From Candidatus Saccharimonas sp. (lineage in GTDB: Bacteria > Patescibacteriota > Saccharimonadia > Saccharimonadales > Saccharimonadaceae): a stretch of 32,000 nucleotides of DNA. The notes beneath the pieces were generated by a model. It made no database searches, was not told the DNA's origin, and saw only the letters and a program-made list of their open reading frames with translations. Every line of letters begins with the position of its first letter. The stretch's first letter is position 1. Of the stretch, positions 28-31,096 are shown one piece after another. The stretch covers positions 240,001 through 272,000 of the forward strand of contig CP076101.2 of NCBI GenBank assembly GCA_015256915.3. Reading direction: 5' to 3'. A program made the position numbers and the translations under genes.

Positions 28-516
28 ATGAAAAATCACGCTTATTCTGATAAAAATCTTGAAGAATTTTTGCAAAAACATTTTGGTGTTAATTTTGGAA
101 TTGAAGAAGTTATTTTGCGTAATCTTTCGGTTGGATATTCAGCCGAAGCTACAATTTTCAAAAGCAAAAAAGGTCGTGTTTATGCTTTTATTTCGCTTGA
201 AGCTCGTGCAACTTTGGGCGATATTCAATATATTCTTTCAAAAATGAACTTAAAACCAGCTTTTTTCTTTCCGCCAAGCGGTTTCGAAAACTATTTTTAT
301 GACCGTGCTAAGGTGCAATTCTTAGAAGTATTTCCGGGGCGCCACGATGTAAAAGATGAAGAGCTGCGATATTACAAAAAACGCGTGCTTTATAACCCCG
401 CCCTTGTTGAAATTTCTGAAATTCGCGATGGTGAAATTCGCTGTTTTAATGCTGATTCTATTGGTTCGTGGCGAACAGCTCAAAGGTATTCGTACAAAAA
501 AATTTTAATGAAATAA
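28..516 (+). CDS. Hypothetical protein, 162 aa, no family recognised
   Basis: Complete ATG..TAA ORF with ordinary composition. No diagnostic motif seen. Confidence 0.6.
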   Translation: MKNHAYSDKNLEEFLQKHFGVNFGIEEVILRNLSVGYSAEATIFKSKKGRVYAFISLEARATLGDIQYILSKMNLKPAFFFPPSGFENYFYDRAKVQFLEVFPGRHDVKDEELRYYKKRVLYNPALVEISEIRDGEIRCFNADSIGSWRTAQRYSYKKILMK

Positions 517-556: not shown

Positions 557-585
557 TTGCAAAATTATTATGCTTATGTTTTAAT
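557..585 (+). promoter_or_regulatory. Sigma70-type promoter of pilin gene 1 (TTGCAA-N17-TTTAAT with upstream TG)
   Basis: TTGCAA at 557-562, a 17-nt spacer, TGtTTTAAT at 577-585, then a leader of about 65 nt with AGGTGG before the ATG at 656. Confidence 0.45.
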
Positions 586-804
586 GGTTGCATACGGACA
601 GACCGTAAATAAAAATAACAATAATAATCGTTCATTAGAAAGGTGGATTTTCAGTATGAACTCAATTAATAAAAATAATAAAAAAGGTTTCACAATCATC
701 GAAGTTGTGCTTGTGCTTGCCATTGCCGGACTTATCTTCTTGATGGTATTCCTAGCGCTACCTGCTCTACAACGAAGCCAACGAGATACGCAACGAAAGA
801 ATGA
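571..804. repeat. Left arm of a 234-bp inverted repeat (pilin promoter -10, leader and codons 1-50)
   Basis: The reverse complement of 1684..1917 matches 571..804 except at 3 clustered positions (597, 599, 602). Checked base by base. Confidence 0.9.
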
Positions 805-1126
805 TGCTTCACGATTGCGCGCAGCAGTAACAGACTACACTTCAAACAACCGAGGAAAATTGCCTTGGGATGGAGCAGCTCCAAAGCCTGATTTTATTAG
901 TAAATATATCACAACAAATAATACAACAACATTTAATGATCCTTCAACAAACTCTCAATATACAATTGCAACTGCTACTGGAGCTACAGATGCTCCAACT
1001 GCACTTGGACAAATGAAGGTTTCCAACAACGCTAAATGTGGTACAGACGGAGCTATCGTAGCTGGTAATGGAATCGCTGTTTCTGTAAAAACTGAAAATG
1101 GCGTTGCAAACTGCGTTGAAGGTTAG
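656..1126 (+). CDS. Type IV pilin-like protein (prepilin N-terminal cleavage/methylation motif)
   Basis: MNSINKNNKKG|FTIIEVVLVLAIAGL gives G-1, F+1 and E+5 followed by a hydrophobic helix. A C-terminal Cys...Cys pair (CGTDG...NCVEG) forms a D-region-like loop. The ATG at 656 was chosen because AGGTGG lies upstream and the paralogue 1308..1832 starts at the identical codon. Confidence 0.85.
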   Translation: MNSINKNNKKGFTIIEVVLVLAIAGLIFLMVFLALPALQRSQRDTQRKNDASRLRAAVTDYTSNNRGKLPWDGAAPKPDFISKYITTNNTTTFNDPSTNSQYTIATATGATDAPTALGQMKVSNNAKCGTDGAIVAGNGIAVSVKTENGVANCVEG

Positions 1127-1149
1127 TATTTAATCTATAAAACTTAATT

Positions 1150-1180
1150 AAATAACTCTCTTCGGGGAGTTATTTAATTT
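1150..1180 (+). terminator. Rho-independent terminator after pilin gene 1
   Basis: aaataactctc-ttcg-gggagttattt is an 11-bp stem with one G.U pair, followed by a T-rich tract. Confidence 0.6.
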
Positions 1181-1256
1181 TGCGAAAGTATTCTATTGGC
1201 TTAATAGTAAGTTTGTTTTAGCACTATTGGATGCTGAGAAGTATTTTACACCACAA

Positions 1257-1294
1257 TAAAAAAACGGCTTCCTTAACGAAAAGCTGTTTTTTTT
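1257..1294. terminator. Hairpin with flanking A and T runs between the convergent pilin genes
   Basis: acggctt...aagctgt stem, A-run on the left and T8 on the right. The pairing contains a G.U on the plus strand that becomes an A.C mismatch on the minus strand. Confidence 0.4.
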
Positions 1295-1307
1295 ATTAAG
1301 ATTATAT

Positions 1308-1832
1308 CTAGTTATTTACGCAGTAGGATCCACCAGCTTCTAGAATTATTCGAAGGGCTACTTTACCATTGCTTCCTTCTTCTATTCTTACTCCATTTGG
1401 CTGTGATGGATCACATATTCCATTTGCTGACCATTCAATAGCTATAACTTCTGCATAGTCATCATATTCCATTTTTTGTGGAGTTCTGTCGAACACTGCA
1501 TAGTTTCGTCCGCTTGGATCCTTCATCTCCTCGCCATCTTTGAATAAATAATTTTTTATAAATCCTGTTGCACCACTATCTTTATTTGGGAAATCTCCTA
1601 AAGTTCTTTCTCCGTGATTAGATGGTAACTTTCCTTTATTAGCGGCTCTATATTCATTTACTGCTGCTAGTATTTTACTTAGGTCATTCTTTCGTTGCGT
1701 ATCTCGTTGGCTTCGTTGTAGAGCAGGTAGCGCTAGGAATACCATCAAGAAGATAAGTCCGGCAATGGCAAGCACAAGCACAACTTCGATGATTGTGAAA
1801 CCTTTTTTATTATTTTTATTAATTGAGTTCAT
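1308..1832 (-). CDS. Type IV pilin-like protein, paralogue of 656..1126
   Basis: The first 50 aa are identical to pilin 1, including KKG|FTIIEV. The C-terminal domain is unrelated and carries a Cys...Cys pair (CDPSQ...YCVNN). Confidence 0.85.
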   Translation of the reverse strand: MNSINKNNKKGFTIIEVVLVLAIAGLIFLMVFLALPALQRSQRDTQRKNDLSKILAAVNEYRAANKGKLPSNHGERTLGDFPNKDSGATGFIKNYLFKDGEEMKDPSGRNYAVFDRTPQKMEYDDYAEVIAIEWSANGICDPSQPNGVRIEEGSNGKVALRIILEAGGSYCVNN

Positions 1833-1917
1833 ACTGAAAATCCACCTTTCTAATGAACGATTATTATTGTTATTTTTATTTACGGCCTATACGTATGCAA
1901 CCATTAAAACATAAGCA
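1684..1917. repeat. Right arm of the 234-bp inverted repeat
   Basis: See 571..804. 231 of 234 positions are identical in inverted orientation. Confidence 0.9.
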
Positions 1918-1931
1918 AGATAAAAAATCAA
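1903..1931 (-). promoter_or_regulatory. Promoter of pilin gene 2 (TTGATT-N17-TTTAAT)
   Basis: The -10 and TG lie inside the repeat. The -35 TTGATT (plus-strand aatcaa, 1926-1931) lies just outside it. Confidence 0.4.
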
Positions 1932-1945
1932 TATCTTTAAATATT

Positions 1946-3265
1946 TTATTGATTTTTAATTTCTAGAATAATTAAGTTTTCAATATGTGGCGTTCGTGGA
2001 AAGAAATTATAGCCACGGGCATAAATTATCTTATATTTTTTACTCAGAATTGCTATATCGCGTGCTTGCGTTGTTGGGTTGCAGCTCAAATAAATCACTC
2101 TTTCTGGTTCTGTCTCAAGAATCTTTTCACAAACTTCACGGTTCATTCCAGCTCGTGGTGGATCAACAATTAAATTTGCTCCTTTTTTAATGAAGTCTAA
2201 AGCTTTTTCACTTGGTGAAAAGATGGCTTTTGCAGTTTTTTCTCGCCCAAGCTTTGTGATATTTCTTTGCATTTCTTTGACTGCTGGTTCGTTAATTTCA
2301 ACTAAAGTTAAATCGCCCGCACCAATTGTGAGACCAATTGAGCCTACGCCAGAGTATAAATCAACTGTTGGTTTTGAAATATCGATGAATTTCTTCATAT
2401 CGCGCAAAGCCTGTTCATAAACTGGTAAGTTTATCTGGAAAAAGCTCTCAGTTGCATAATTAAAATTCACGCCAAGAACTGAATCCTGTAAATTTTCTTG
2501 GTTTTGGCTTTGAATCTTTTTAGTTATTACGCTGGCTGGCGATTTTGGGTTTGAAAAAATAATCTCAAAATTTTTAAATCCAAGGCTAGTTATTTCTTCT
2601 TTCGAAAATAGCTTAAACCTCTCATCTTTTACATAAAGTTGGGCTGAAATTTCACCTTTTTGGTTCGCGCGAATCAATAAAGTCTTCAAATCTCGACTTG
2701 CAGTTTTTCTATCTCGTAAAATTGCAAGCACTTTTTGGCCTGCTTGGTTAATTTCTGATGTAGCTAAACTTGTACCAAAAACTGGGATTTTTCCTTTTCC
2801 TCCACGCTTAAAAAATGCTAAACTTGGCTCGCCATCATTTTCATTTTCTTCAGATTTTTCCCACCAAAATGAAAACTCCACTTTATTACGATATTCAAAA
2901 ATTTTACCATCAGAATAAAAATCTTCTTGGTTTTTGAGTTCAATTTTTTCTTGGTGAAAGCTTTCAAAAATTAGTTCTTGTTTGATTTTTTGTTCGAAAT
3001 CGAAGTTAAAAATCTGCCATGGGCTGGTTGAAAGAAAACTCTCCTTATCTTTCGGCTCAATTCTCTCGGGCGAATTTTCGAAAATTTCAACCGCAAAACC
3101 CTCTATAAAACTCGATTTACTTTTTGTAATTTGAATTTTTGCGGTTTCATTTGGTAAGACTCCCCACGCAAAGATTTTTTTTCCATTTTTAAGCGTACCT
3201 AAGGCTTGCCCGCCAGGTGTAATTTTATCAAATTTAGCTATTTCGAACTTAATTTTCCGTGCCAT
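1946..3265 (-). CDS. RumA/RlmD (TrmA)-family SAM-dependent RNA (uracil-5)-methyltransferase
   Basis: TRAM-like N-terminus, DLYSGVGSIGL (SAM motif I), DPPRAGM, and YLSCNPTTQARD with the catalytic Cys. Confidence 0.8.
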   Translation of the reverse strand: MARKIKFEIAKFDKITPGGQALGTLKNGKKIFAWGVLPNETAKIQITKSKSSFIEGFAVEIFENSPERIEPKDKESFLSTSPWQIFNFDFEQKIKQELIFESFHQEKIELKNQEDFYSDGKIFEYRNKVEFSFWWEKSEENENDGEPSLAFFKRGGKGKIPVFGTSLATSEINQAGQKVLAILRDRKTASRDLKTLLIRANQKGEISAQLYVKDERFKLFSKEEITSLGFKNFEIIFSNPKSPASVITKKIQSQNQENLQDSVLGVNFNYATESFFQINLPVYEQALRDMKKFIDISKPTVDLYSGVGSIGLTIGAGDLTLVEINEPAVKEMQRNITKLGREKTAKAIFSPSEKALDFIKKGANLIVDPPRAGMNREVCEKILETEPERVIYLSCNPTTQARDIAILSKKYKIIYARGYNFFPRTPHIENLIILEIKNQ

Positions 3266-6041: not shown

Positions 6042-8834
6042 CTAATGCTCAATTTTAAGATTATTCGTATTTTGAGTTTCTCGAGTTTGCGGTTTTAAAT
6101 TTCGCGAACGCGGTTTGCGGCGTTTTTTTACTTGCGGAATTTCAATTCCTTTTTCAGCAAAAGCTTTCGAAAGATCCTTAAGGCCTAAACTTGGTTCTTT
6201 TTGTTCAGCAGAATTTGGACTGATCTTTCTTGGATCGATCGGTGTTTTCGAAAAATCAATTTTTTTTGCTTCAAACATTGGTTGAATTGGTGTAAAATTT
6301 TGTGGTTTTGCTGTTGGTTTTATGTTCTGGGATTTTTGGTTCGAAATTCCTTGATTTTTAACTGGCGCAAAAACATTTTCCGCGACCTTTTTCGAAAATT
6401 CTACCCCATTTCGTTCCGCCCAAGCCTTTGTCATTAGTTCTTTTGGTGGCACTAGAATATCGCGGATGCGTTGTTCGATGACGGCTCGTGGCGTACTATA
6501 ATTTCGGCGCGTATTTTCAATAATCTTCGCGCTCAAATCATTAAAAGGTTTTGGCAAAGTTAGAGTTGTCGCACTAAATGGTGTTGATTTTTCGCCGTTG
6601 ATAATCATCGTCATTACAAAATGGCGGTTATTTAAGCTCATTAAATCTGAAGCATCGAATTGTGGCTTAAACTGCTCGGCCAAAACTGGAGCGTCTTCAA
6701 CCGAAACACGGAACGAAATGATTGATCCAACATTTCCAAAAACCGCATTTTTAACGCTGTCGGTCATTTGTGAAACATATTGATTAGCAACGGTTAAAGT
6801 TAAGCCGTATTTTCGAATTTCTGAAAGAATTACGGCAAAAGAATCGGTAGCAAAGTTTTGAAATTCATCAACATAAAGATGAAACGGTCGGCGATCTTCA
6901 AGCCGTTCAATATCTGCGCGCGATTGGGCGGCAAGCTGAATTTTTGTCACTAAGAAAGAACCAAGTACCGAGGCGTTATCTTCACCAATCAAGCCTTTCG
7001 AAAGATTTACAACCAAGATTTTGCCTTCATCCATAATCTCGCGAATATTAAAGGTCGATTTTGGCTGACCAATGATATTTCGAATAATTGGGTTTGCTGT
7101 GAAAGCCCCAACCTTATTTAAAATTGGTGCAATAGCTTCATTCACCTGTTTTTCACCCCATTGACCAAATTCCTTTTTCCAGAATTGAAGTACGGAGTCA
7201 TCTTTACAATAAGTTAAAGTCTCTTTTCGAAAATCGCCATCTGTTAGCATTCTTGAAATATCAAGCATTGTAGTTTCTGGGCGATCAAGAAGTGCCAGAA
7301 GTGTAAAACGCAAGATATATTCAAGGCGAGGACCCCAAGAATCACCAAACATACGCTTCAAAACACCGATAACCTCGGAAGAAATGTTTGATTTTCGACT
7401 CGGATCAGTTACTTCGAGCGGATTGAAGCCAAGTGGAAATTCTGTGTCGGCAGGATTAAAGTAAATTACATCATTAAGACGATGCTCAGGAATGAATCGC
7501 ATGTTGTTTTGCGCAAAATCGCCGTGTGGGTCGATAATTGCATATCCTTCCCCATGAAAAATATCCGAAAGTGCCAAAAGCTCAAGCGATCCAGATTTAC
7601 CGGTTCCTGTTTGACCAATAATATAAAGGTGTCGCGAACGGTCGCGGCGAAGCATTCCAAATTGGTGGTTAATTCCGCGAAAGTTTGTTAAACCAAAAGC
7701 TGAAATATTTTCATCATGTGCGCGGTCGCCAGTAATTATTGGTAATTTCGAAGGCGGTTCGGCAGTTTTGCTTGAAGCCCAAACAATGTTTGGAGTTTCC
7801 ACGTTTGTGTGCGGTAAATGCCAAATGCTGGCGAGCTCTTGAATATTTAAAATAAAGCCGTCATCAAAGAATATTCGCGATTGAAAATCTCGAATTTTAT
7901 CTTTATCGAGTGAAGAATTCGAAGCCTTAAAACCATTTAAATTTGTACTATTAAACTGTTTGAAAGTTCCAGTTAGAGCTTGAATTTGAAGCCGTGCAGT
8001 ATCTTCATCTTCCCCTAAATATGCCAAACGAATTTTAACTTGATAACCAAGTTTTGTGGCCTTTTCTTCAGCTTTCGAAATACGAGTTTTATCGCGGTCA
8101 GACGGTTCTTTTTTAGCATTTTCTGAACCCTCTGGTGGTGTCCAAAGCGCTTCTAGAATTCGCAAAATATATTTCCAATCAATTTTGAAAGCTTTTTTAC
8201 CAGACTTAACTTTCTTCACCCATTCATCTGATTTTTTATGCCAATCATCTGCAACAGGTCGTGCTAAAACTTGAATCCAAAGTTGATCATTTGTTCCGTC
8301 TAATTTTGCGAGTGTTCCAGTAATTCCCGCAAGTGGATCAACTTCGAAACCGTCAAAAGTTTTAATTGGCAAGGCTTCGTTTTCAATCAAGTCGATTTCA
8401 GTTGAATAAATTACGTGTTTATTTTCGAGATTCTCTGCGTAATCTTCTTTTGCTTCATAAATTTGAACTGTTGGATATTGTGAATAAATCTGCCCTTCCA
8501 CAAAACTTTGTAAAGTTCTCGGCATCCAAACATAAAACCGAATTGCGCCATTAACAGATACAATTTCAAAACTTAAATGTTCCTGAACGCCATTATTATT
8601 TTTAAGCTCGGTTGGGTCTCGCAAAATTCCGTGCAAACTGGCAAGGAGTTGCTCGGCGGCAAGCTCAGATTTATCATTAGTTTTTGGAATTTCCAACGCT
8701 AAAAGAACGCTGTCGGTATTCATTACGGTTAATTTATCGATTTTTTTATAATTTTGCCAAGTTAGAAAAGCTAAAATCGCCACGATTGTTAGCCAAACTA
8801 AAGGGTTAAATAAGATTGAAAAAAATGCCGTCAT
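6042..8834 (-). CDS. VirD4/TraG/TraD-like (FtsK-HerA superfamily) membrane-anchored ATPase
   Basis: N-terminal TM segment, Walker A GQTGTGKSG, Walker B-like HLYVDEFQNF, and a RKYGLTLTVANQY block typical of coupling-protein C-terminal domains. The start at 8834 is supported by the promoter at 8844..8872. Confidence 0.6.
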   Translation of the reverse strand: MTAFFSILFNPLVWLTIVAILAFLTWQNYKKIDKLTVMNTDSVLLALEIPKTNDKSELAAEQLLASLHGILRDPTELKNNNGVQEHLSFEIVSVNGAIRFYVWMPRTLQSFVEGQIYSQYPTVQIYEAKEDYAENLENKHVIYSTEIDLIENEALPIKTFDGFEVDPLAGITGTLAKLDGTNDQLWIQVLARPVADDWHKKSDEWVKKVKSGKKAFKIDWKYILRILEALWTPPEGSENAKKEPSDRDKTRISKAEEKATKLGYQVKIRLAYLGEDEDTARLQIQALTGTFKQFNSTNLNGFKASNSSLDKDKIRDFQSRIFFDDGFILNIQELASIWHLPHTNVETPNIVWASSKTAEPPSKLPIITGDRAHDENISAFGLTNFRGINHQFGMLRRDRSRHLYIIGQTGTGKSGSLELLALSDIFHGEGYAIIDPHGDFAQNNMRFIPEHRLNDVIYFNPADTEFPLGFNPLEVTDPSRKSNISSEVIGVLKRMFGDSWGPRLEYILRFTLLALLDRPETTMLDISRMLTDGDFRKETLTYCKDDSVLQFWKKEFGQWGEKQVNEAIAPILNKVGAFTANPIIRNIIGQPKSTFNIREIMDEGKILVVNLSKGLIGEDNASVLGSFLVTKIQLAAQSRADIERLEDRRPFHLYVDEFQNFATDSFAVILSEIRKYGLTLTVANQYVSQMTDSVKNAVFGNVGSIISFRVSVEDAPVLAEQFKPQFDASDLMSLNNRHFVMTMIINGEKSTPFSATTLTLPKPFNDLSAKIIENTRRNYSTPRAVIEQRIRDILVPPKELMTKAWAERNGVEFSKKVAENVFAPVKNQGISNQKSQNIKPTAKPQNFTPIQPMFEAKKIDFSKTPIDPRKISPNSAEQKEPSLGLKDLSKAFAEKGIEIPQVKKRRKPRSRNLKPQTRETQNTNNLKIEH

Positions 8835-8843
8835 AGTGTTTAA

Positions 8844-8872
8844 ATAATAGCATAAAACTGCAAAAAAATCAA
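8844..8872 (-). promoter_or_regulatory. Promoter TTGATT-N17-TGcTATTAT, 9 nt upstream of the ATG at 8834
   Basis: Read on the minus strand. No Shine-Dalgarno lies between the -10 and the ATG. Confidence 0.45.
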
Positions 8873-8940
8873 GATAGTGGTTATGCTTTTTGGTTTTTCG
8901 AAAATAAAATCCGCCCAAATTTTTGAGCGAATTTTAGTTT

Positions 8941-25050: not shown

Positions 25051-26028
25051 TTAGCCCAGAATTTTCCAGCAGCAATTAATTAATTCTTGCAAAGTTTCAT
25101 CATAATTCTCATAAATTCGAAAGCCTGCAGCATAAGCGTGACCGCCACCACCAAAATAGCCAGCGATATCGGCCGCAACTGGTGAATTCGTGCGAATTTT
25201 CCCTGTCAATTTACCATCTGGGTAGGTTTTTATAGCCACGCAAGCTTCTACACCTTCAACCATTCGCATTTCATCAATCACCAAAACACTTGGGTTATAC
25301 TTATCAGAGTATTCTTTAATCTCGCTCCATGGAATATGTACAACTGCTAATTTTCCATCTAAAAAATATTCAATTCGCTGAATTAGTTCTCCCTTATATT
25401 TTAAAATTTCAGGTGCTTTTTTCGAAAGTTCACGGCGATCCTCTTCAAGTTTGGCTGAATTTGCGCCAAGTTTTGTTAATTCGCCCGCAACTTCAAAAGT
25501 TCTGGCTGAAGTATTGCTCGTTGAAAGCCCAAGCGTGTCGCTAAAAATTGCTCCAAGTAAATTTTGTGCAGCGTTTTCATTAATTTTCCAGTGATTTGCT
25601 TTTGCAATTTCGAAAATTAATTCACCTGCTGAGCTAGCCTCTTCTAAAATTAATTCGTGTTTAAAAAACAAATCTGGTGTTGCATCGGTATGGTGATCAA
25701 TAACTAAAACTGGCGTTTTTTCAAGCAAGTTTTTATAAAGCGGGTCCTCAATTATTTTTGACAGTAGAATACTACTGGTTGTATCAACAATGATAAAAAG
25801 GTCAAATTTTTCATAAATTGAACTCTCCACTCTATCCCAGCCCTTAAAATATCGCAAATATTTAGGGATATCAACTGGACAGAAAAGTTTAACTTCTTTG
25901 CCTAACTTGCTTAAAATTTCTTCTAATCCTAAAGCTGACCCTAAACTATCGCCATCAGGGTTTTCAGCCTGAATAACGCAAATTTTTTCTGCATTTTCAA
26001 CTATTTTTTTTGTATTTTCGAAATTCAT
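25051..26028 (-). CDS. DHH family phosphoesterase (NrnA-like)
   Basis: DGDSLGS, VIDHHTD and GGGHAYAAG motifs. Confidence 0.8.
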   Translation of the reverse strand: MNFENTKKIVENAEKICVIQAENPDGDSLGSALGLEEILSKLGKEVKLFCPVDIPKYLRYFKGWDRVESSIYEKFDLFIIVDTTSSILLSKIIEDPLYKNLLEKTPVLVIDHHTDATPDLFFKHELILEEASSAGELIFEIAKANHWKINENAAQNLLGAIFSDTLGLSTSNTSARTFEVAGELTKLGANSAKLEEDRRELSKKAPEILKYKGELIQRIEYFLDGKLAVVHIPWSEIKEYSDKYNPSVLVIDEMRMVEGVEACVAIKTYPDGKLTGKIRTNSPVAADIAGYFGGGGHAYAAGFRIYENYDETLQELINCCWKILG

Positions 26029-26645
26029 TAAATTGCCTTTCGTCCTTCTAAAGCATGACTCAAAGTGATCTGGTCGGCATACTCCAAGTCAACACCTACT
26101 GGTAGACCGCGTGCAAGTCGTGAAATTATTAAGTTTTCGAAGCCTTTTTCGCGTAAATAATTCTGAATATAAAGTGCTGTGCTTTCGCCTTCAACGCTAG
26201 CGTTTGTTGCAATAATTATCTCTTGAACTTTATCTTTCAAAATTCTTTCAGCAAGCTCACGAATATGTAATTGATCGGGTGTGATTCCGTTAATTGGCGA
26301 AATAACCCCACCTAAAACATGGTAGGTTCCGTTAAAATGCTTTGTTTTTTCAAGGGCGATAATGTCTAGAGGCTCCTCAACAACCGCAATTAGTTTTTTA
26401 TTGCGAGTTTCATCAGCATAAAGTGGTGAAATTTCTTCATCTTTTGAAATCAATGCAAAAGTTATAGGGCAGCTTTTAACATTTTTATGTAAATTTAAAA
26501 GACTATCGGCAATTTTTTTACTTATAGTAGCATTATTTTTTAGTAAATAGTAAGCATAGCGTTCGGCTGTTCGCGAGCCGACGCCAGGGAGCTTGCCGAG
26601 ATTTTCGATAGTTTCAGTTAATGCTTGAGGTAGAATTTGTGACAT
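26028..26645 (-). CDS. recR: Recombination protein RecR
   Basis: LPGVGSRTAERYAYYLL helix-hairpin-helix, Toprim block LIAVVEEPLDIIALE, and the C-terminal GLPVGVDLEYADQITLSHAL block. Confidence 0.9.
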   Translation of the reverse strand: MSQILPQALTETIENLGKLPGVGSRTAERYAYYLLKNNATISKKIADSLLNLHKNVKSCPITFALISKDEEISPLYADETRNKKLIAVVEEPLDIIALEKTKHFNGTYHVLGGVISPINGITPDQLHIRELAERILKDKVQEIIIATNASVEGESTALYIQNYLREKGFENLIISRLARGLPVGVDLEYADQITLSHALEGRKAI

Positions 26646-28478: not shown

Positions 28479-29339
28479 CTACTTCAAGCTCCAAATATTT
28501 CCACCATTGTTTGAGATTAACCCTTTAATTTCGAGCATTGTTGCAGCTTGATTAAAGTTGCTCACAGAAAGCCCAGATTGCTTAATTATAGAATCGCTAG
28601 CTGTTGTGCCATTTTTTGAAAGAATTTCGAGAATTACGTTTTCGGCCGGCGTGTCACCCTGGAAGAGCTTGGTTTGTTTTTCGAAACGGTCTGGAATTAA
28701 AAAATCGAGCAGATCTTCTATTGAAATTAAAGGATTTGCACCATTTTTAATAAGCTGATTGCAGCCCGCTGAAAGTGGTGAGGTAATATTCCCGGGAACA
28801 GCAAAAACTTCTTTTCCTTGGTCAAGAGCATGATTTGCAGTCGAGAGGGTTCCGCTACGCGAGGCGGCTTCAATAATAACTACGGCATCAGCAAGACCTG
28901 AAACAATTCTGTTGCGTGCCAAAAACTGCCAAGGTTGGGCTGGTGTTCCGTTTGGATATTCACTTAAAATGACTCCATTGTTTTCAAGAATTCTTTGCCC
29001 TAAGGCTTCATGTGAACGTGGATAAATTTTATCAACACCATTTGCAAGAACTGCCAGAGTGATTCCACCACTATCAAGAGCCGCCCGATGCGCAACCGAG
29101 TCAATACCTAAAGCCAAACCGCTCACAACCACAATACCGTTTTTCGCACATTCGCTGGCAATTTTGGTTGCAACTTCTTTACCATAAGCGCTAGGCTTGC
29201 GAGTTCCTACGATTGCTACGGTTTTAATCCTTTTTGGAGGTAACTGCCCTCGCATAAAAAGCTGCTTTGGTGGGTCTGGAATATGTTGTAAATCTTTTAA
29301 ATAATCTAATGATGTAGGTTTAATTTTAATAATTTCCAT
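28479..29339 (-). CDS. dprA: DNA-processing protein DprA (Smf)
   Basis: VAIVGTRKPSAYGKEVA and SGLALGIDSVAHRAAL Rossmann-like core, with a C-terminal winged-helix-like tail. Confidence 0.9.
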   Translation of the reverse strand: MEIIKIKPTSLDYLKDLQHIPDPPKQLFMRGQLPPKRIKTVAIVGTRKPSAYGKEVATKIASECAKNGIVVVSGLALGIDSVAHRAALDSGGITLAVLANGVDKIYPRSHEALGQRILENNGVILSEYPNGTPAQPWQFLARNRIVSGLADAVVIIEAASRSGTLSTANHALDQGKEVFAVPGNITSPLSAGCNQLIKNGANPLISIEDLLDFLIPDRFEKQTKLFQGDTPAENVILEILSKNGTTASDSIIKQSGLSVSNFNQAATMLEIKGLISNNGGNIWSLK

Positions 29340-30583: not shown

Positions 30584-31096
30584 ATGAATAAGCATAAACT
30601 AAATAAAGGTTTTACGATCATTGAAGTCGTTTTGGTTCTTGCGATTGTGGGATTAATTTTTCTTGCTGTTTTTTTAGCTCTTCCCGCTCTTCAACGCAAT
30701 CAACGAGATACACAACGTAAAAACGATATGTCACGGTTTAAGGCCGCTTATCATCAATATCGCGCAAACAATAAAGGTTCAAAAATTGGCGGAGTATTCA
30801 ACGGTGAGTCTATGAGTAAACTTCCAAATTGGGATAATTTCATTAATGAATATCTTCGAAAAGGTAATGACACTTTTCGTGATCCTCTTGGTGAAGATTA
30901 TTTCGTTCAGGAGGGGTTGTGGGATTATGCTCGAGCTGGAGGGGTTGGAACAGGTGTTATTACTATTAAAGATGGCCATGTTTGCGACTATAGTTCTAAT
31001 AAGCCAATCAACCAAAGAATTGTTAGTGGAAATGGTCAAACTGCAAGGATTTGGCTTGAATCTGGTGAGGTTTATTGCTTAGATTTACTTAACTAA
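30584..31096 (+). CDS. Type IV pilin-like protein (third paralogue)
   Basis: MNKHKLNKG|FTIIEVVLVLAIVGLIFLAVFLALPALQRNQRDTQRKND, with a C-terminal Cys...Cys pair (VCDYS...YCLD). Confidence 0.85.
   Translation: MNKHKLNKGFTIIEVVLVLAIVGLIFLAVFLALPALQRNQRDTQRKNDMSRFKAAYHQYRANNKGSKIGGVFNGESMSKLPNWDNFINEYLRKGNDTFRDPLGEDYFVQEGLWDYARAGGVGTGVITIKDGHVCDYSSNKPINQRIVSGNGQTARIWLESGEVYCLDLLN

Follow-up and report, generated by a model that had tools for sequence, protein, structure and literature searches.

In Moraxella bovis and Moraxella lacunata, the recombinase Piv inverts a segment carrying the alternative pilin ends tfpQ and tfpI, acting on short recombination sites next to its own gene; one promoter and the constant 5' region lie outside the invertible segment, and both orientations are found. 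In Neisseria, silent, promoterless pilS cassettes serve as donors, and gene conversion diversifies the variable part of the one expressed gene, pilE. Here, we analyzed a 32-kb stretch of DNA (contig CP076101.2, positions 240,001 to 272,000; hereafter the window, meaning this whole stretch) that carries two convergent type IV prepilin genes, pilin A and pilin B, whose 5' parts form a near-perfect inverted repeat of 234 nucleotides (nt). Comparison with orthologous loci indicates that recurrent non-reciprocal homologous recombination, that is, intrachromosomal gene conversion, probably keeps the 5' modules of these two paralogs near-identical.

Conversion is known as a force that maintains the similarity of repeated genes. 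It has been quantified in a model case, the inverted duplicates tufA and tufB of Salmonella, where mismatch repair lowers the conversion rate and shortens the tracts, and where rates drop sharply in recA strains (PMC5485169). Piv-type pilin inversion in Moraxella is mentioned in PMC11208160, and passages of PMC11623550 describe type IV pili of cultivated Saccharibacteria as mediating host binding and twitching motility. The bacterium studied here belongs to the same group: it is an oral Saccharibacteria bacterium of the Nanogingivalaceae (TM7 G6). Its TrmA protein is 69% identical to that of Candidatus Nanogingivalis gingivitcus (TM7 G6), and the metagenome-assembled genomes (MAGs) that we retrieved bear the labels Candidatus Saccharimonas, Saccharibacteria or Nanogingivalaceae. 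Our literature searches returned no description of this locus or of a homogenized inverted pilin pair in Saccharibacteria.

An inverted repeat spans the 5' modules of two convergent pilin genes

Pilins A and B are complete genes arranged tail to tail. Comparing their arms reproduced the coordinates and the count given in an earlier, sequence-only reading of this DNA: the reverse complement of positions 1684-1917 matches 571-804 at 231 of 234 positions, with mismatches at 597, 599 and 602. The arms can be extended slightly (235 of 240 positions identical), and the spacer between them measures 879 base pairs (bp). Each arm covers the -10 region, the leader, the ribosome-binding site (RBS) and codons 1-50, corresponding to -85 to +148 relative to the ATG. 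Identity does break off abruptly inside codon 50, as that reading had put it: it ends at position 804, the second base of the codon (GAT versus GAC), and is followed by nine consecutive mismatches. In the whole 32 kb, just one further inverted repeat is 35 nt or longer; it measures 35 nt, with 77% identity, which excludes chance as the origin of the 234-nt repeat. An assembly artifact was ruled out as its source as well, the repeat being present in more than 30 independent assemblies from both SPAdes and MEGAHIT, some of which carry private single-arm variants.

The putative -35 elements of the two genes, TTGCAA and TTGATT, lie just outside the repeat, as previously claimed, each 17 nt upstream of a shared extended -10 element, TGnTTTAAT. 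No proposed promoter or terminator was picked up by a generic sigma-70 and terminator scan of the locus, and we therefore treat these promoter elements as readings of the sequence with a putative function rather than as findings. The small leader hairpin proposed around the mismatched positions exists as a 5-bp stem, which is absent from the right arm, but the leader does not fold significantly better than shuffled sequence (z = -1.2; folding strength is expressed throughout as z against shuffled sequence).

Almost every strain of the window's lineage has the three arm-specific differences, and the right-arm version creates a TAG in the upstream reading frame. Gene callers start pilin A too far upstream (L011-L049), either at a TTG at position 524 (200 amino acids, aa) or at another start (180 aa), and pilin B escapes this over-extension because of that TAG. 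The over-extended call is useful as a marker of the leader and flank joined to a given pilin.

The two arms evolve in concert

Orthologous loci were identified by using the TrmA/RlmD-like gene in the right flank as an anchor, which yielded 31 loci from species-representative genomes, all of them oral MAGs; L-numbers (L011-L099) label the contigs and loci fetched for comparison. We compared a 192-nt core of the repeat across genomes having both arms. Between the two arms of one genome, the core differed by 0.9 nt on average, as opposed to 4.2-4.6 nt between genomes (31 genomes). Cores were identical in 24 of 32 genomes, and because these identical cores fall into nine haplotypes, homogenization must have occurred repeatedly; the remaining eight genomes showed 1-10 differences between their own arms. 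Five left-arm substitutions in L014 and one in L015 are mirrored exactly on the right arm. At polymorphic sites, the minor allele was carried by both arms in 68 genome-site cases and by a single arm in 27. Left arms grouping with left arms and right arms with right across genomes is the opposite of what the data show.

This pattern extends to silent and untranslated positions. Apart from the three mismatches, the window's arms agree throughout the 85-nt untranslated part and at every synonymous site. In the distant species represented by L063, the two paralogs are identical over positions +1 to +148 of the coding sequence (148 of 148), which is only 80% identical to the window's. Across genomes, codons 1-50 showed a ratio of nonsynonymous to synonymous polymorphism (pN/pS) of 0.00-0.01 at a pS of 0.12-0.16, and the variable parts a ratio of 0.24-0.37, peaking at 0.53 in codons 71-120 of pilin A. 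Nucleotide diversity was lowest in the repeat core (about 2%); as calculated from alignments, it reached 5-7% for the flanks and 8-9.5% for the variable parts. Even the leader marker has been converted in some strains, where the three arm-specific positions have turned left-type: on contigs of 128-198 kb, the right flank adjoins a leader of the left type.

Together, the excess of between-genome over within-genome differences, the nine haplotypes and the perfect match between the L063 paralogs support the ongoing gene conversion suggested by the sequence-only reading. The comparison of related genomes that it proposed came out positive: the 5' module evolves in concert and the 3' modules diversify.

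The intervening segment has one orientation on full-span contigs

A 234-bp near-perfect inverted repeat would also be an adequate substrate for RecA-mediated crossovers that invert the 879-bp segment. Each of the two -35/leader contexts would then receive the other variable end, which would act as phase or antigenic variation. To read orientation, contigs were scored automatically, using regular expressions, by the links between flanks and variable parts. All of the at least 30 contigs with both links showed the orientation of the window, and none of these full-span contigs was inverted. Three contigs missed by the classifier (L075, L091 and L096) and the 167-kb contig behind L024/L030 were also normal.

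Inverted junctions did occur on eight contigs, joining the left flank to pilin B (L027, L028, L029, L035, L037, L098 and L099) or the right flank to pilin A (L053), and chimeric proteins combining left-flank sequence with B were present on about 20 contigs. However, all eight inverted-junction contigs end inside the locus (Fisher p = 0.0013), and they are short or of low coverage (2.4-6.6x according to the SPAdes names). Several of them break at the (CTATT)n microsatellite between the two terminator-like hairpins. L053, a MEGAHIT k141 contig, extends for only 122 nt into its second arm, and its two arms have the same core sequence; with k = 141 and coverage gaps, a de Bruijn graph could produce this chimera. 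The B allele P0151 has the normal orientation where the contig is long (151 kb) and appears 'inverted' only on contigs of 1.7-1.8 kb, and the B protein of L035 is a mosaic. Searching metagenome and genome contig collections for an exact chimeric-junction pattern (left-arm marker, N190-198 and a 23-mer of B) gave no match, though this pattern is too strict for diverged strains; a general search for the repeat core was used in its place.

An inversion would, moreover, change little, because both arms contain the same -10 element, leader, RBS, signal peptide and first 50 codons. The orientation of the segment is thus stable in our data, contrary to the proposed swapping of variable ends, and an invertible switch is an unlikely explanation of the locus. 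The putative inverted form may be an assembly artifact or a minority subpopulation. We likewise give a low probability to the idea that the eight junctions are real and reflect a homology-driven, recombinase-independent flip-flop in populations, with one orientation kept dominant by selection. If true, this flip-flop would swap which pilin follows which -35 element and leader, and flipping combined with conversion would make the 5' module a landing pad for surface cassettes imported by natural transformation.

A related possibility is site-specific inversion by a Piv-, Xer- or Hin-like recombinase encoded elsewhere, with the repeat being incidental. The Piv system of Moraxella provides a precedent. 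Such systems also exist for other surface proteins, for example at the MBA locus of Ureaplasma (PMC3047005). When open reading frames (ORFs) of at least 100 aa from the 32 kb were compared with Pfam, no tyrosine, serine or Piv-type recombinase was found, which bears out the earlier remark that no recombinase is visible. As no inverted assembly was resolved, and as such systems have short sites and one expression site instead of two full 5' modules, we consider this explanation highly improbable.

A third pilin as internal control

The window encodes a third type IV prepilin, which served as an internal control. Its N-terminus matches that of A and B at 37 of 40 residues after the cleavage site, but at only 86 of 120 nt (72%), with 24 of the 37 identical residues encoded by different codons. 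The third pilin escapes homogenization, and protein constraint alone can therefore not yield DNA identity of the kind seen between A and B. This bears directly on the view that purifying selection on the N-terminus and regulatory region maintains the similarity without any exchange of DNA. Residues 1-50 are indeed invariant (pN = 0) and almost so across the family. Yet synonymous and untranslated sites match within a genome and differ between genomes, and the third paralog encodes the same protein stretch at far lower nucleotide identity, making selection alone a very improbable cause.

An old pair with a dispensable member

The C-terminal domains of A and B had been read as unrelated. We dismissed this claim: from residue 51 on, the two proteins still align with 33% identity over 57 residues (E = 3e-5), and they share their cysteines. 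A and B are old, diverged paralogs. The pair, with the same boundary, was present in at least 35 assemblies, including seven GTDB species representatives whose arms measure 192-235 nt and are 96-100% identical. Ten long contigs encoding exactly the same B protein share the gene order UvrD, ORF162 and A, then B and TrmA, along with the -85 to +148 bounds and nearly the same differences at -59, -57 and -54, and their A variable domains differ by several residues. In a second lineage, the right-arm leader is quite different and the repeat spans only about 192-205 nt. The distant species L063, in which TrmA is 81% identical to the window's, carries a pair of its own whose repeat spans 307 nt. Most species that are as distant, or more so, have just one A-type pilin at the locus. 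A very recent duplication, which would account for the 98.7% identity and its abrupt end and had been offered as the alternative to conversion, is hardly conceivable, given that the pair and its boundary are common to the seven representatives and, in a sequence of its own, to L063, that the variable parts have diverged to 33% protein identity and that nine arm haplotypes each occur on both arms.

Every genome seen has an intact pilin A. Pilin B, in turn, was lost through a 416-bp deletion in three contigs, including one 666-kb MAG contig (L026 6866-7004, L032 2004-2142, L034/L094 4157-4295). The deletion corresponds to about 1447-1863 of the window, removes the B RBS and codons 1 to approximately 128, and has its junction in A/T-rich sequence that is alike on both sides. 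B is further disrupted by a frameshift in L040 (one additional A in an A-run at codons 6-7) and by a premature stop at codon 124 in L051. Pilin B is thus dispensable.

The allele groups of A and B also reassort across genomes (L016, L014 and L042 versus L065-L070), with L016 combining a lineage-2-like A and a lineage-1 B, which indicates recombination between strains inside the locus. The mosaic B protein of L035 (P0001), composed of two lineages, reflects either such recombination or a chimeric assembly.

Gene products, terminators and neighborhood

Coordinates of all features are collected in Table 1. Both pilins match PF07963 (28.5 and 28.2 bits; cut-off 21.2) and TIGR02532 (23.1 and 22.9 bits; cut-off 16.3), and share a prepilin motif, in which the short, basic leader MNSINKNNKKG places Gly at -1 and the following FTIIEVV has Phe at +1 and Glu at +5. 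Pilin B has a sequence match to the major pilin PilE1 of Streptococcus sanguinis (E = 5e-4) and a partial GspG-like match. An AF2 model of B (71 sequences, pLDDT 84) predicts an N-terminal helix of 51 residues (14-64) followed by several beta-strands, an arrangement expected of a pilin. In alignments of 71 and 73 sequences, cysteines C140/C171 of B and C128/C153 of A show no variation; the family is equally invariant at the C-terminal strand motif. No pilus machinery genes were found in the 32-kb window.

Both 3' hairpins proposed as terminators within the segment fold much more stably than shuffled sequence, although the generic scan called neither. The stretch 1127-1190 behind pilin A has a minimum free energy of -16.7 kcal/mol (z = -5.9), and the hairpin just past the B stop codon looks like a bidirectional terminator, judging from its flanking A- and T-runs. 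The microsatellite between them, (CTATT/AATAG)n, comprises about 1-2 copies in the window and about 12 or more in other strains (for example, L015 6636-6694, L027 12750-12822 and L037 8470-8535). It is the chief cause of the 878-933 bp range in spacer length, and several assemblies end in it. Past the microsatellite, L028 (1-262) contains a small ORF of about 75 aa seen in no other fetched locus, representing either a strain-specific insertion or a chimeric join at the microsatellite.

Table 1. Features of the pilin locus and of the remaining window (positions in the window)
Feature	Position	Strand	Description
Pilin A	656..1126	+	156-aa type IV prepilin; leader MNSINKNNKKG, then FTIIE
Pilin B	1308..1832	-	174-aa type IV prepilin; residues 1-50 same as A
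Left arm	571..804 (565-804 extended)		TGnTTTAAT 577-585, leader, Shine-Dalgarno-like AAGGTGG 640-646, ATG 656, codons 1-50
Right arm	1684..1917 (1684-1923 extended)		From repeat comparison
Arm-specific differences	597..602 (597, 599, 602)		About +5 to +10 of predicted mRNA; -59/-57/-54 relative to ATG
Between-arm segment	805..1683		879 bp; both variable 3' parts, two terminator-like hairpins, microsatellite remnant
Putative -35 of pilin A	557-562	+	TTGCAA; outside repeat; read from sequence
Putative -35 of pilin B	1926-1931	-	TTGATT (reverse complement); outside repeat; read from sequence
Terminator-like hairpin after pilin A	1146..1179	+	15-bp stem, UUCG loop, then AAUUUUG
Hairpin just past pilin B stop	1258..1293		A-run and T-run flanks; z = -2.6 (minus strand), -3.6 (plus strand)
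Microsatellite remnant	1189..1198		(CTATT/AATAG)n pentanucleotide between the two terminator-like hairpins
Left-flank ORF	28..516	+	162 aa; no Pfam or NCBIfam match; conserved
Right flank	1946..3265	-	tRNA/rRNA U5-methyltransferase, TrmA/RlmD-like
958-aa protein	6042-8918	-	TrwB/VirD4-type coupling-protein and HerA-like ATPase matches
RecR	26028-26645	-	
DprA	28479-29339	-	
Third type IV prepilin	30584..31096	+	170 aa; upstream region unrelated to A/B

The 162-aa ORF lies directly upstream of the A-type pilin in the examined genomes, including single-pilin species, and may be a pilin-associated gene. In a related species with a single A-type pilin, a YetF/DUF421 gene takes the place of B (L057-L062, 6554-7190), and in some strains of that species an ApbA-like reductase gene is also there (L058 7382-8335). 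As these genes can sit between pilin and TrmA, this slot is a variable region. Elsewhere, the 32 kb encodes housekeeping functions, a TrwB/DUF8128 coupling-protein-like product, RecR, DprA and the third pilin. The 958-aa coupling-protein-like product, whose counterpart in related contigs is annotated as DUF8128, resembles type IV secretion components of Patescibacteria (bioRxiv 10.1101/2025.01.22.634366). By their annotation, RecR and DprA would provide the window's reduced genome with recombination-mediator and transformation functions.

Discussion

Building on the observed anatomy, arm co-variation, control paralog, constant orientation and dispensability of B, we propose that non-crossover recombination between the arms recurs over time. 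Conversion tracts would end on the inner side where the divergence of the paralogs becomes excessive, and on the outer side at the unrelated flanks. Past codon 50, the exposed parts of the globular domain would evolve apart and be reshuffled between strains. The two pilins would thus share core promoter, leader, RBS, signal peptide and polymerization helix. A single machinery should therefore be able to process and assemble both, while they would display different surfaces. Both genes are presumably expressed, and their products might be co-assembled or used alternatively. Either conversions would far outnumber crossovers, or selection would act against the inverted form. By analogy with tufA/tufB, conversion here would depend on RecA. 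DprA and RecR in the window count as support for homologous recombination, and passages of PMC10187176 describe Saccharibacteria as naturally competent.

Several points weigh against this proposal. Most strains of the window's lineage have kept the differences at 597 and 599 although the sequence on either side is homogenized, which needs selection or a tract bias beyond pure conversion. The variants shared by both arms tally sequences, not conversion events, and some haplotypes could have spread whole by transformation between strains. Both the RecA dependence and the conversion rates are inferred. The eight contigs with inverted junctions make crossovers possible. Finally, a Foldseek search of the B model against the PDB gave no significant hit, the best pilin being FimA at E = 1.5.

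If gene conversion is indeed at work, an uncultivated oral lineage (TM7 G6) keeps two pilin surface variants fit for one assembly machinery by homogenization at the DNA level. This functional reading would matter because cultivated Saccharibacteria bind their hosts and move by means of type IV pili. The locus also displays population-level reshuffling and occasional loss of variable parts, and represents a clean natural case of partial-gene concerted evolution in a reduced genome. The mechanism itself is a known one, no new one is opened, and concerted evolution is unsurprising in kind. Two lessons apply to metagenomics: short inverted repeats like these yield chimeric 'inverted' contigs at low coverage, and gene callers routinely over-extend pilin A to the TTG start.

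The tfpQ/tfpI system of Moraxella resembles our locus in having two opposed pilin 3' ends between inverted repeats that lie inside coding sequence. Here, however, either 3' end is preceded by a module of its own (putative -35 and -10, leader, RBS, ATG and first 50 codons), no recombinase was found nearby (ORFs of at least 100 aa in the 32 kb) and no inverted form was resolved; with two expression modules instead of one, we rejected a Piv-type switch. The likeness to cassette-style pilin variation, drawn by the sequence-only reading, proved superficial. RecA-type non-reciprocal transfer between pilins with a conserved 5' and a variable 3' part may be common to this locus and Neisseria pilE/pilS, but both copies are complete genes here, and conversion homogenizes the constant part. 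With 33% amino acid identity, the variable parts of A and B have diverged too far to be fit as mutual donors. For this reason, and as there are no silent cassettes, a Neisseria-type system was rejected as well.

More than one major-pilin-like gene per genome has been described, in the respective passages, for Legionella (the adjacent paralogs PilA1/PilA2, PMC13170364) and TM7x (PilA1/PilA2, PMC11623550). Unlike here, the two major pilins of TM7x are located at separate loci, and the thin pilus needs its own ATPase, PilB2; the searched passages of PMC11623550 do not mention an inverted repeat or a duplication at these pilins. In human sex-chromosome palindromes, arm-to-arm conversion likewise keeps the arms more than 99% identical and inversions of the spacer are rare (PMC3723533, PMC8981503), but these eukaryotic palindromes measure kilobases to megabases, as compared to 234 bp, and lack a boundary within a gene.

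A close parallel is tufA/tufB of Salmonella and E. coli: two inverted copies on one chromosome with identity at silent sites, tracts that are blocked where homology ends, and conversion outweighing rearrangement (PMC5485169). Our pair differs in that its copies are 0.9 kb apart instead of 762 kb, and in that only the 5' 234 nt, including promoter and leader, are homogenized while the rest diverges. Overall, the pilin pair shows what is seen for tufA/tufB, with paralogs closer to each other than to their orthologs, identity at silent sites and several homogenization events.

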